DNA from: Rhodospirillaceae bacterium
GTDB lineage: Bacteria; Pseudomonadota; Alphaproteobacteria; CACIAM-22H2
Length of the DNA: 64,000 nucleotides
NCBI GenBank assembly: GCA_022843945.1
Contig: JALHMR010000005.1
Span: 137,716 to 201,715, forward strand
Direction of reading: 5' to 3'
The translations under genes and the position numbers were made by a program. This document shows positions 17,561 through 26,201 of the stretch, piece by piece. Below the pieces are notes generated by a model, which did not search any database, was not told the origin of the DNA, and saw only the letters and a program-made list of their open reading frames with translations. How positions within the stretch are numbered: position 1 is the first letter of the stretch; each line of letters starts with the position of its first letter.

Positions 17561-18070
17561 CTACTTCTCTCGCAATTTCTCAAAAAACACACTGAGCGGG
17601 TCCGGCTCGTATCTTCCAAAAGGGCCTCGTTCTCTATAGCCGCATTTGCGGTAGAGCCCGATAGCATCCGGTTGCTTAACCCCAGTTTCGAGCCGAATGG
17701 TGGAGGTTTTCTCTGACCAGGCAACCTCCTCCAGCGCAACCAGCAAGCGCTTGCCAAGGCCGAGGCCCCTCATCTCGGGATCAACAAACATGCTCTTGAG
17801 CTCGGCTGTACCGTCATCAGCCAGGATGAGTGCGCCGCATCCCACTGGCCGGCCATCGAGACGAGCGACTAAAAGTCGGGCCGTCGGTGGCCGTAGCGCG
17901 TCGAGTCCTATACTGTGGACACTCGCTGTCGGATAGAGCGAATTGGCCTGAGCTTCCGCACGGCGCAGAATGCTTATTATGTCCGGCTCTGTCGCAACAC
18001 CCGGTTCTATGGAAAACGCTGCGCTTCGGCTCGGCCGGGCTCCTGTGCCTTCGTGATCAATGCTGCCCAT
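17561..18070 (-). CDS. GNAT-family N-acetyltransferase
   Basis: The VGCGALIL...RGLGLGKRLL acetyl-CoA-binding motif; 169 aa. Confidence 0.75.
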   Translation of the reverse strand: MGSIDHEGTGARPSRSAAFSIEPGVATEPDIISILRRAEAQANSLYPTASVHSIGLDALRPPTARLLVARLDGRPVGCGALILADDGTAELKSMFVDPEMRGLGLGKRLLVALEEVAWSEKTSTIRLETGVKQPDAIGLYRKCGYRERGPFGRYEPDPLSVFFEKLREK

Positions 18071-18076
18071 CCGGGC

Positions 18077-18799
18077 TCAATCTCCGGCACTTGGAGCTGA
18101 TTTCTGCGCTACAAAAATGGCGCGATCACCCGGTTGTTTCGCCGAGCCTTCGAAGGACCCGAATAGCTGAACTCGACGAAAGCCGGCATTTTCCAGCATC
18201 ACGCGAAGTTGGTCAGAAGTATACACGCGAAGCCAGCAGTCAAAAACCTGTTTGCCGTCTCGCAAGAACGTCGTTGATAGCAGGCCGCGATCCCAATCCA
18301 TCGTGGCAACCTCGCTGTATCTTTGACCGTTTCGAAGTTCGCGTGTTGTCTTTCCGTCAAAACTCTTGCGGACTCGATCGGCGTCAGCGACTTCGATGAT
18401 CAATCGTCCGCTCGGCCGCAGGCATTGGTGCCAACTGTTGAGCAGCTTTGCGTCTTCCGACTGACTCTCGAAATAGCCGAAGCTAGAAAACAAGTTGAGG
18501 ATCAGGTCGTAGGGTTCCCCCGGCGGATGCCTCATATCGGCCCGCCGATATTTCGGGCCGGGATTCTGTCGCTGAGCGAACTCTAACTGCTCCTTTGACA
18601 AGTCAATCGCAGTTACGTCGAACCCAAGTCGGTGCAATGCCGCTGCGTATCGGCCAATTCCACACGGCGCATCGAGCACGCGCTCTCCAGCAGACAATCC
18701 TGCAAGATCCACTATCGCACGTGCGTTACGTTCAGTTTGCGCGTAGAGCCCGACAGCTTCGCATGCTTCGACAAACTCGAGCGGGTAGGCGACATCCAC
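18077..18799 (-). CDS. Class I SAM-dependent methyltransferase
   Basis: Motif I VLDAPCGIGRYA and a post-I acidic residue (DVTAIDLS); 240 aa. Confidence 0.75.
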   Translation of the reverse strand: MDVAYPLEFVEACEAVGLYAQTERNARAIVDLAGLSAGERVLDAPCGIGRYAAALHRLGFDVTAIDLSKEQLEFAQRQNPGPKYRRADMRHPPGEPYDLILNLFSSFGYFESQSEDAKLLNSWHQCLRPSGRLIIEVADADRVRKSFDGKTTRELRNGQRYSEVATMDWDRGLLSTTFLRDGKQVFDCWLRVYTSDQLRVMLENAGFRRVQLFGSFEGSAKQPGDRAIFVAQKSAPSAGD

Positions 18800-19024
18800 G
18801 TTCTCTCTCCCTCGCTGCGGCTACATTCGTATCGAACCCATGCGATACGCCGATCAAGAATTGATTATGCCCGCATAGATTGTCAACGGATTGCTACGCA
18901 CGTATTCCGCGCACAACTGTAGGTACAGTCAGATTTTTTTATACAACCTCGGAGATTGATTTACACAAAGACCTCTCTATGATCGCGCCGCTTTGCTGCA
19001 CCCACTACATCACAAGAGGCGCAC

Positions 19025-24499: not shown

Positions 24500-24544
24500 T
24501 TCAACTCCACTATTTGACAGCCCATATCGAGGGAATTCGCTTCA

Positions 24545-25255
24545 ATGTCGCAACTGGCCTCCATCGGTAAAGCAACTAATCGTCGCGAAGGGCGCTCTAT
24601 CCAATTCACGGTGCGCCAACTCAGCTCCCTGGACTTTGGGCAGCTTCATCGGCTTCACGTTGCGATACTGGCAGAACTGCCAGACGGCGTATTGGCACAA
24701 AGGGGCGAGGAATACTGGGGAGCGTTGGTGCCGCACAAGGGAGCTTTGTTCGGTGCATTTGACGAGGAGCGCCTCATAGCCTACGGCGCGATGGAGTTTG
24801 CATCAGACTTTGGCGTGTTCCGGGCCAAACACGTCGATGTTATCCGTGAGCAGGAGTTAACTAACGTCGCGTATTTTGCAGGGTCTTGCGTTCACCCAGA
24901 TTTTCGAGGATCGGAGCTCCAAAGGAGGTTATCCCGTGAGCGCATAGACCACGCGCTCAAGAGCGGATACTTCCACTCCTTGGCCGCCGTCTCGACACTG
25001 AATCCCTTCAGCCTCGGCAGTCTGCTGGCCGTTGGCATGACGGTAAAAGCCATGGTGCCCGACGAGTTCGGGTACGATTGGTTTTTGCACCGGGACATGC
25101 GTCTGACTTCAGAGCCAGTCCTTTCGGGAGACGTTCTAACGGTCGACGCTGCTGATACCGATCGGCAGAAGAGACTTCTGAGCTTGGGATACTGGGGGGT
25201 ACACCTTCGAGGCTCGAAGATGACCCCAGCAATCGAATACGCAAAGCGTGAATAG
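24545..25255 (+). CDS. GNAT-like acyltransferase (divergent)
   Basis: GSCVHPDFRGSELQRRL resembles the GNAT motif A; 236 aa. Confidence 0.45.
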   Translation: MSQLASIGKATNRREGRSIQFTVRQLSSLDFGQLHRLHVAILAELPDGVLAQRGEEYWGALVPHKGALFGAFDEERLIAYGAMEFASDFGVFRAKHVDVIREQELTNVAYFAGSCVHPDFRGSELQRRLSRERIDHALKSGYFHSLAAVSTLNPFSLGSLLAVGMTVKAMVPDEFGYDWFLHRDMRLTSEPVLSGDVLTVDAADTDRQKRLLSLGYWGVHLRGSKMTPAIEYAKRE

Positions 25256-25268
25256 CCGAGGTCGCAAC

Positions 25269-26201
25269 ATGCAGGCCTCTAAAGGCTCGGTTGGCTATTC
25301 TCGATCACTGTTTTACATACTGGTCGCTGTAAGCCTGCTATCGATCATGACCGCCCTGATAAAGGCCGTTGGATCTCGGTATCCGATAGGTCAGGTTGTT
25401 TTCTTTCGCAGCTTTTTTGCGTTGCTACTCCTCATCCCCTTGCTACCTCGCAACGGCGGATTCGCAGCCTTTGAGACTACGCGTCCTTTCGGCCACCTGA
25501 TGCGATCAACAGCGGGAATTCTTGGAATATTCTGTTTTTTTGGGGCGGTTGGATTCATGCCTCTCGCCGACGTCATGGCCGTCGGCTACACGGCACCCCT
25601 TTTCATGACGGCGCTGGCGGGCCCACTACTACGAGAGCGCGCCGGCGTAGCCCGATGGATTGCCGTGCTGCTGGGTCTTGGCGGGATGCTCTTAATTGTA
25701 CAACCTGGCATCGGTATCTTCTCTGTGGGCGCACTACTGGCCATCGGGGGAGCAGTCTTCGCGGCCTTGGCGATGATTTCAATCCGACATCTCGGTGAAA
25801 GGGAGCGTGGTTTTACGATCGTGCTGTACTTCGCATTGGCATGCACAGTCACGAGTGCCATTACGCTGCCGTTTGGCGCGACTTGGCCGACGCCAGTCGA
25901 TTTCGGCCTACTTATTGCGATCGGGCTTTTAGGTGGAACAGCACAGCTACTTGTAACGCGCGCCTACCAGATGGCGCCGGTTTCCGTCCTTGCGCCGCTA
26001 GAATACACGGCCATTCTTTGGGCGATCGCTCTTGGCGTCATCTTTTGGGGAGAAATCCCGTCGGCGATCGCGCTAGTCGGGGCTTGCGGCATCGTCGCTG
26101 CAAATCTTCTAGTCGTATTTGGCGACGGCTCTTCTAGAGGCGTTGGGCGCGAGCCGAGAGTCGTAGAGAGCCCTGTGTCGAAGGGCGTGCCTTCCGGATA
26201 G
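25269..26201 (+). CDS. DMT-superfamily (EamA/RhaT-type) transporter, about 10 TM
   Basis: Two EamA-like repeats of hydrophobic helices. Start trimmed to MQASKG; last gene of the operon. Confidence 0.75.
   Translation: MQASKGSVGYSRSLFYILVAVSLLSIMTALIKAVGSRYPIGQVVFFRSFFALLLLIPLLPRNGGFAAFETTRPFGHLMRSTAGILGIFCFFGAVGFMPLADVMAVGYTAPLFMTALAGPLLRERAGVARWIAVLLGLGGMLLIVQPGIGIFSVGALLAIGGAVFAALAMISIRHLGERERGFTIVLYFALACTVTSAITLPFGATWPTPVDFGLLIAIGLLGGTAQLLVTRAYQMAPVSVLAPLEYTAILWAIALGVIFWGEIPSAIALVGACGIVAANLLVVFGDGSSRGVGREPRVVESPVSKGVPSG

Follow-up and report, generated by a model that had tools for sequence, protein, structure and literature searches.

A minimal tabtoxin-type gene cluster, without beta-lactam genes in a 64-kb window, on a genomic island of a Rhodospirillaceae bacterium

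What does a bacterium make with a set of lysine-pathway paralogues that sit on a genomic island together with methyltransferases, acetyltransferases, and an exporter? We addressed this question for a stretch of 64,000 nucleotides from a Rhodospirillaceae bacterium (assembly GCA_022843945.1, contig JALHMR010000005.1; here called the window), in which nine intact open reading frames (ORFs) occupy positions 17561-26201. A first-pass annotation, made from the letters alone, had described these genes as an accessory pathway in which extra copies of DapD, DapC, and LysA convert an intermediate derived from tetrahydrodipicolinate (THDP) into an exported, modified diamino acid. That general idea is supported by the present analysis; what the annotation missed is the tabtoxin identity of the cluster and the absence from the window of every beta-lactam-forming and oxidizing gene. 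Rather than a new kind of system, the cluster is a minimal tabtoxin-type variant without beta-lactam genes in the window. With a probability of roughly 55%, we read it as a diverged, horizontally acquired variant whose product is a non-beta-lactam, exported, N-modified, C-methylated amino acid of the lysine type.

The tabtoxin cluster of Pseudomonas syringae/P. coronafaciens consists of tabC-tblA-tabA-tabB-tabD-tabP and tblS-tblC-tblD-tblE-tblF-tblR (PMC3927611; Kinscherf & Willis 2005). Its left block encodes TabC (a novel protein with a zinc-binding-like motif), TblA (weakly similar to methylases), TabA (LysA-like), TabB (DapD-like), TabD (an aminotransferase), and TabP, and genetic evidence places the branch point of tabtoxin synthesis at THDP, ahead of diaminopimelate (DAP) (PMC3927611). 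With the canonical cluster of P. coronafaciens pv. garcae (locus L001) as the reference, BLASTP comparison gave identities of 43% for TabC, 53% for TblA, 56% for TabA, 58% for TabB, and 46% for TabD, and the five window genes at 19025-24499 follow one another in the same order and on the same strand, the collinear early block expected of a tabtoxin-type cluster. The 458-aa protein at its head, which matches no Pfam or NCBIfam family and had been taken for an orphan, is a member of the TabC family with 206 homologues, including proteins of tabtoxin-producing Pseudomonas. By homology and gene order, the five core genes represent the early half of the tabtoxin (wildfire toxin) pathway in a diverged form. 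All nine ORFs lie where the first-pass annotation had placed them, and Pfam and NCBIfam agree with the domains that it had assigned:

17561-18070, minus strand: GNAT1, an acetyltransferase (Pfam Acetyltransf_1, 1e-18)
18077-18799, minus strand: MT1, a class I S-adenosylmethionine (SAM) methyltransferase, N-methyltransferase-like (Pfam, NCBIfam)
18800-19024, no strand: divergent intergenic region, GC 0.49, with a promoter-like site at 18956-18983 (plus strand) and AAGAGG 6 nt 5' of the ATG at 19025
19025-20401, plus strand: TabC homologue, 458 aa, a predicted metalloenzyme fold like that of dipeptidyl peptidase III (DPP III, M49), with motifs HDLGH and LLQETAAD
20416-21096, plus strand: TblA homologue, a SAM methyltransferase with motif I LSLGCGNG (weak methyltransferase match in Pfam/NCBIfam)
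21115-22398, plus strand: TabA homologue, a LysA-like pyridoxal phosphate (PLP) decarboxylase of the Orn/DAP/Arg type
22436-23263, plus strand: TabB homologue, a DapD-like THDP N-succinyltransferase
23270-24499, plus strand: TabD homologue, a DapC-like class I aminotransferase with the PLP-lysine motif SKRS
24545-25255, plus strand: GNAT2, a member of an uncharacterized GNAT acyltransferase family of ∼240 aa (very weak GNAT match in Pfam/NCBIfam)
25248-26201, plus strand: EamA-family transporter, presumed exporter (Pfam EamA, 1e-22), whose start overlaps the end of GNAT2 by 8 bp

The close spacing described before holds: successive plus-strand genes are separated by 14, 18, 37, 6, 45, and -8 bp, and the divergent minus-strand pair is 6 bp apart. 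A Shine-Dalgarno sequence is visible before most of the nine genes. Promoter-like and terminator hits were no more numerous than in shuffled sequence, which makes the promoter-like site at 18956-18983 weak evidence. Seven of the nine genes, in the cassette and among the accessory genes alike, end in a TAG stop. The TabC homologue has a public gene call (P0001, 346 aa) that appears to be truncated at the N terminus, since alignments with homologues begin at residue 6 and the ATG at 19025 has AAGAGG in front of it.

The lysine-pathway resemblance of the core was examined with E. coli LysA and DapD as the only housekeeping sequences in the comparison. The window decarboxylase shares 27% identity with E. 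coli LysA and 56 to 63% with cluster-borne TabA homologues; for the succinyltransferase, full-length identity to E. coli DapD is 50% and identity to cluster-borne TabB homologues is 56 to 66%. In neighbor-joining (NJ) trees rooted on the E. coli enzymes, both proteins fall inside clades of cluster-borne copies; the phylogenetic check proposed in the first-pass annotation thus sets them apart from the E. coli enzymes. Its assignment of the DapD copy to the enterobacterial type agrees with the 50% identity, which marks the gammaproteobacterial type, and the tabtoxin-type TabB family in general resembles DapD of that type. The NCBIfam lysA model scored the TabA-like protein at 262 bits (cutoff 298) and the DapC_gpp model scored the TabD-like protein at 247 bits (cutoff 475), while the dapD models were split over the TabB-like protein (TIGR00965, 326 against a cutoff of 375; NF008808, 318 against a cutoff of 204). 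For annotation, the DapD-, DapC-, and LysA-like genes of the cassette should not be counted as lysine-pathway genes.

The second half of the tabtoxin pathway was sought by tblastn across the whole 64-kb window. TblS, the beta-lactam synthetase of the asparagine synthetase type, gave no match there better than an E value of 0.15, and TblC, a TauD-type 2-oxoglutarate-dependent oxygenase, gave none. TblD matched in the window through its GNAT domain only (residues 535-688), its GMC oxidoreductase part not being found. TblF (an ATP-grasp ligase) and TabP (an M20 peptidase), which serve to form and release the dipeptide protoxin, had no significant match in the same 64 kb, nor had TblR. Nor does the window encode a ligase, a nonribosomal peptide synthetase (NRPS), or a carrier protein.

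To see how the early and late genes are distributed in other genomes, we used an alignment-based scan of one genome per GTDB species, a single-protein scan with the 458-aa protein having confirmed nothing. The scan yielded 51 genomic loci with a TabC homologue. TblS, TblC, and TblD lie within 10 kb of TabC in about 42 of the 51, and these 42 are mostly from actinomycetes, plus Pseudomonas, Stappia, and myxobacteria. The exceptions without the full trio are L030, L032, L044, L049, L050, and L051, and the contig of L011 is too short to judge. A split arrangement, with the late genes away from TabC, was seen in none of the surveyed loci.

The surveyed loci also vary in their early genes. Six loci from Archangium, Stappia, and Nannocystaceae (L029, L038-L041, and L043) have TabC, TblA, TblS, TblC, and TblD, and all except L040 have TabA too, while TabB and TabD are absent from all six; the dedicated succinyltransferase and aminotransferase are therefore dispensable and presumably replaced by housekeeping enzymes. 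TabC-TblA fusions occur among the homologues, as in Archangium (P0104, 714 aa). A second TblS-less architecture is found at ∼7-15.8 kb in the loci of Billgrantia endophytica (L049) and Enterobacteriaceae bacterium B14 (L050), where genes for a TauD protein, an MT1-like methyltransferase, an ATP-grasp ligase, TabC, TblA, and TabA are followed by TabB or TabD, with an additional MATE exporter gene in L049 and a carbamoyltransferase gene in L050.

In NJ trees of concatenated proteins, the window cassette forms a deep branch outside the clade of actinomycetes and Pseudomonas. Its sister is a forest-soil metagenome contig (ENA ERZ1760229, FX_forest_Scaff1684121; loci L054/L056), to which it is 69% identical in TblA, 66% in TabB, 62% in TabA, 51% in TabD, and 48% in TabC. 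The soil contig carries an MT1 homologue (P0130, 52%) and a stand-alone GNAT (53% to GNAT1), along with an ATP-grasp ligase, a TauD oxygenase, a GMC oxidoreductase, an M20 peptidase, and MFS transporters, and it adjoins a large gene for an NRPS-polyketide synthase (PKS). No gene of the asparagine synthase type was called between 7 kb upstream and 12 kb downstream of its TabC. The early cassette thus feeds at least four different downstream gene sets, namely those of the canonical beta-lactam clusters, of L049/L050, of L054, and of the window, and therefore the tabtoxin-like family probably includes non-beta-lactam amino acids that are so far unknown.

The integrity of the window copy was judged from columns that are otherwise invariant in each family. 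The five core proteins have 0, 1, 1, 1, and 0 private substitutions at such columns, one of them in the TblA homologue, a number no higher than in members of complete clusters. Because of its deep branch, the TblS-less stretch of its sister, the few private changes, and the base composition and Shine-Dalgarno sequences common to its genes, the cassette does not look like a fresh deletion product or a decayed remnant.

What the cluster would add to the early cassette is suggested by its four accessory genes. The best match of MT1 in the PDB, 9ri2, is uncharacterized; its relatives there include N-methyltransferases (the glycine/sarcosine enzyme GSMT, sugar N,N-dimethyltransferases of the DesVI/TylM1 type, and CypM), and ToxA, a UbiG-type O-methyltransferase, and MitM are also among the matches. 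The best NCBIfam match is a daptide methyltransferase. Homologues at 31 to 32% identity occur in L049 and L050, and MT1-like genes are confined to loci without TblS (the window, L054/L056, L049, and L050), being present in 4 of 8 such loci versus 0 of 42 that contain TblS (Fisher p=3e-4, with lineages that are not independent). Two distant MT1 homologues, P0131 and P0132, lie in unrelated gene contexts. GNAT1 is 49% identical by BLASTP to the C-terminal GNAT domain of TblD (residues 535-688). A close relation of GNAT1 to Ttr-type tabtoxin-resistance enzymes was considered and not detected, none of its 7 PDB matches at E≤1e-3 being a tabtoxin-resistance protein.

GNAT2 has one close homologue among 5.8 billion proteins (P0129, 54%), and that gene adjoins an EamA gene whose product is 39% identical to the window EamA protein. 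A full HMMER scan placed it in a loose family of ∼470 representatives (472 at E≤1e-3), none of them close. An AlphaFold2 model built from two sequences was unusable (predicted local distance difference test score, 31), and a profile search against the PDB was used instead; the family profile matches the acetyl-CoA-binding core of YqjY, YncA, AAC(6'), and phosphinothricin acetyltransferases (PAT). Given the recurrence of the gene pair on another contig and the GNAT profile match, GNAT2 and EamA look as if they had been added to the cassette as an "acetylate and export" pair. BLASTP found no significant similarity between the window EamA protein and TblE. The first-pass annotation had held that DapD, DapC, and LysA are not found with methyltransferases, acetyltransferases, and an exporter; this is contradicted by the canonical tabtoxin cluster itself, in which TblA, a GNAT domain within TblD, and TblE of the EamA family occur together.

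The analysis shows the homology, the gene order, the absence of the late genes from the window, the phylogenetic position, and the intact conserved residues; the route that follows is inferred. The first steps of tabtoxin synthesis were reportedly assigned to TblA, TabB, and TabD by Lyu, Ushimaru, and Abe in 2022, and older labeling studies are said to have traced the beta-lactam carbonyl to a one-carbon unit; TblA presumably supplies the extra carbon that defines the pathway and hence is not a tailoring enzyme. The TblA-like methyltransferase would add one carbon, beside the imine carbon, to THDP drawn from the host lysine pathway. The TabB-like enzyme would then open the ring and N-succinylate it, and the TabD-like enzyme would transaminate the 6-oxo group. 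The succinyl group might be removed by the TabC-like protein, a putative metalloenzyme of DPP III-like fold, or by host DapE, and decarboxylation by the TabA-like enzyme would give a C-methylated lysine, most simply 5-methyl-lysine. In tabtoxin producers, TblC and TblD would oxidize the methyl group to a carboxylate, which TblS would then close onto the terminal amine. The structure of tabtoxinine-beta-lactam, an inhibitor of glutamine synthetase, fits this proposed C-methylation route.

Since the window encodes the route to methyl-lysine only, together with an N-methyltransferase-like enzyme, two GNATs, and an exporter, we propose an exported, N-modified, C-methylated amino acid of the lysine type. 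The window route would stop at the methyl-lysine stage and continue with N-methylation by MT1 (18077-18799), N-acetylation by one or both GNATs, or both kinds of modification, and the EamA protein would export the modified amino acid. One of the acetylations may serve self-protection rather than tailoring. The product would be a diamino acid that is free, modified, and not a beta-lactam, and it may act as a lysine antimetabolite; like the first-pass annotation, we do not regard its structure as predictable from sequence. The TblA homologue at 20416-21096 would accordingly not be a tailoring enzyme.

For TabC, either of two chemistries may apply. The TabC family profile finds the short DPP III enzymes 5zum and 6eom by sequence, and in the alignment the HExGH motif of TabC falls on HExxH and its QExAAD on EExKAD. 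Identity of the TabC-like protein to its DPP III/PolE relatives is 15 to 17%, and it has no match to Pfam M49 or DUF6421. A second family with this fold, PolE (DUF6421), comprises Fe/pterin-dependent amino acid oxidases with the motif HE/DxxH-x(21-23)-E (PMC12614342). In 51 of 53 relatives the motif reads HExGH, against HDLGH in the window protein; HD instead of HE is odd for a zinc hydrolase and tolerated in the PolE family, while the spacer to the downstream Glu is 24 residues in TabC versus 21 to 23 in PolE. TabC may therefore carry out an amide hydrolysis, such as desuccinylation, which is considered because the cluster encodes neither DapE nor TabP, or an oxidation. Tentatively, and at less than even odds, one may go further and see in tabC-tblA-tabA(-tabB-tabD) a portable module for C-methylated lysine that has been rewired here with an N-methyltransferase, two acetyltransferases, and an exporter to yield an undescribed non-beta-lactam antimetabolite or signal, with TabC as an enzyme of DPP III fold turned to a new, non-peptidase chemistry (desuccinylation or Fe-dependent oxidation).

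Several points weigh against an exported, N-modified methyl-lysine. The visible part of the genome is 64 kb, and oxidizing or cyclizing genes could lie elsewhere. The architecture is a singleton whose only other copy found is a 911-bp metagenome fragment, and therefore purifying selection on the arrangement cannot be shown; the island integrase is degraded. The C-methyltransferase role given to TblA, with THDP as substrate, is a presumed one. In TabC, the HDLGH motif would weaken the case for a zinc hydrolase, the resemblance of its fold to the Fe/pterin oxidase PolE means that it may oxidize rather than hydrolyze, and its retention in loci without TabB and TabD counts against a desuccinylase role.

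Could the cluster be something simpler or something more complete? The thought, raised in the first-pass annotation, that it is merely the organism's housekeeping lysine/DAP operon draws on its matches to DapD, DapC, and LysA models, with NF008808 for DapD above its cutoff, yet it is effectively refuted. The lysA and DapC equivalog scores below cutoff and the NJ trees reject it, the gene order is tabC-tblA-tabA-tabB-tabD, the genes sit on a low-GC island with attachment repeats, the TabA-like protein, 27% identical to E. coli LysA, groups with cluster-borne homologues, and TabA itself is reported not to complement lysA (PMC3927611). That the strain makes tabtoxinine-beta-lactam or a close analogue with late genes placed elsewhere in its genome would suit the early genes and the TblD-type GNAT, given that only 64 kb were examined. 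We consider it highly improbable, however, because TblS, TblC, and TblD lie close to TabC in most of the surveyed loci with no split arrangement seen, because MT1-like genes and TblS are mutually exclusive across loci, and because the sister contig has no TblS over the 7 kb upstream and 12 kb downstream of its TabC.

Two further alternatives accept the absence of the late genes and differ over what is left. The cassette might supply a C-methylated lysine or DAP block to a pathway elsewhere, such as an NRPS or an ATP-grasp ligase, with the GNATs and EamA serving for self-protection or overflow. The large NRPS-PKS gene and the ATP-grasp ligase of the sister contig and the ATP-grasp ligases of the TblS-less L049 and L050 speak for such a supply role, but no ligase, NRPS, or carrier protein is encoded in the window, and the translational coupling of the exporter to GNAT2 suggests that what is released is a free amino acid; we judge a supply role unlikely. 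Rather unlikely as well is an inactive relic, in which a tabtoxin-like cluster lost its tblS-tblC-tblD block and the remainder drifts without making anything useful. All late genes are missing from the window, the integrase is degraded, TabC has a Glu-to-Asp change in its metal motif, and a second occurrence of the architecture was not found, all of which a relic would explain. Against this, the nine ORFs are intact, closely spaced, and provided with ribosome-binding sites; their 0 to 1 private changes at family-invariant columns do not exceed those of complete-cluster members; the lineage is old and deep branching, with a sister that has no TblS in the stretch covered; and MT1, GNAT2, and EamA are additions rather than debris, with MT1 and GNAT1 common to the sister cluster. 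An exported, N-modified, C-methylated lysine remains the reading that we prefer. It matters for two reasons: the cluster points to non-beta-lactam products within the tabtoxin-type family, and, tabtoxin biosynthesis being only partly solved, a natural minimal cluster is a ready-made system in which to isolate the early intermediate and to assign TabC, TblA, and TabA.

The nine genes sit on a horizontally acquired island, as the first-pass annotation had recognized. The island spans ∼26.9 kb (∼15.2-42.1 kb of the window), is low in GC, and has 39-bp repeats of a tRNA-Ser at both ends, exact at 15160-15198 and 42056-42094 by an exact repeat search. Its boundary features are as follows:

15109-15198, minus strand: tRNA-Ser(CGA), the island attachment site (ARAGORN; Rfam, 62 bits, with no other Rfam match; repeat search)
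15317-15658, minus strand: C-terminal fragment of a tyrosine integrase, probably a pseudogene (Pfam Phage_integrase, profile positions 91-166 of 172 only)
42056-42094, plus strand: right-hand 39-bp repeat, a partial 5' half of tRNA-Ser, marking the island end (exact repeat search)

All nine cluster genes have a GC content of 0.55-0.58 and a GC content at third codon positions (GC3) of 0.56-0.67, against a GC3 of 0.85-0.92 in core genes, and past 42 kb the GC content climbs to core values of 0.67-0.70. Composition contrast, a flanking tRNA gene, direct repeats, and an integrase (as a fragment only) together identify a tRNA-linked genomic island. The repeat comprises the 5' half of tRNA-Ser(CGA) and reaches as far as the anticodon loop, where a repeat of the 3' end would be usual, so the intact tRNA-Ser has its 5' part supplied from the island side. 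Flanking core genes include obgE-proB-proA, dnaE2, and gpmI; the segments 45171-48623 and 54159-58271, with obgE-proB-proA and the error-prone polymerase DnaE2, are ordinary chromosomal surroundings.

Apart from the nine-gene cluster, no biosynthetic genes were found on the island; its remaining cargo includes a T5orf172 protein, a STAND-like NTPase, and two HipA-type kinases accompanied by helix-turn-helix (HTH) partners. The HipA-family genes lie directly 3' of the cluster (26798-28096 and 29679-31055, within 26463-31055), the first preceded by a small HTH gene (26463-26801) and the second by a small ORF (29480-29815), and they look like toxin-antitoxin modules. Cargo with a defense-like flavor follows at 32123-39542: a T5orf172/MUG113 protein (32123-33289), a CoiA_N-like protein of 582 aa (34329-36077), and a STAND-NTPase-like protein of 551 aa (37887-39542). 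A megablast search of the cluster against plasmids gave no match. A 911-bp metagenome contig, AADWTP_10143277 (L061, JGI 3300002461), is 100% identical to window positions 22752-23662 at the TabB/TabD junction, and therefore the same strain or cluster occurs in that environmental sample.

How, then, does the cluster compare with known systems? To the tabtoxin cluster it is tied by five collinear homologues with 43 to 58% identity, a GNAT homologous to the C-terminal domain of TblD, a divergent arrangement of two blocks on either side of an AT-richer spacer, the presence of an EamA-family membrane protein, carriage on a tRNA-linked genomic island, and, presumably, the branch point at THDP. It differs in having no TblS, TblC, GMC domain, TblF, TabP, or TblR in the window, from which it would follow that neither a beta-lactam nor a dipeptide is made, and in adding an N-methyltransferase-like enzyme and another GNAT, from an uncharacterized family; its EamA protein is not detectably related to TblE, its island is at tRNA-Ser rather than tRNA-Lys, and its host has a GC content of ∼68 to 70% and a cassette lineage that branches outside the Pseudomonas and actinomycete clade. 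With the soil cluster L054/L056, the sister lineage, it has in common the MT1 and GNAT1 homologues and, in the stretch covered, the lack of a TblS-type gene, whereas the soil cluster keeps ATP-grasp, TauD, GMC, M20, and MFS genes, adjoins an NRPS-PKS gene, and is without the GNAT2-EamA pair. The housekeeping succinylase branch of lysine synthesis (DapD, DapC, DapE, DapF, and LysA) employs the same enzyme families in the same chemical order on a THDP-derived skeleton; the window proteins, by contrast, are clustered, island-borne paralogues that group with tabtoxin-type copies and are linked with a methyltransferase and a protein of predicted DPP III-like fold, with no DapE or DapF in the cluster. 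Finally, the TabC-like protein shares with the short bacterial DPP IIIs (M49; 5zum and 6eom) an HExxH-type motif followed by a downstream Glu, and with PolE/DUF6421, despite the difference in spacing, the HD permitted in place of HE.

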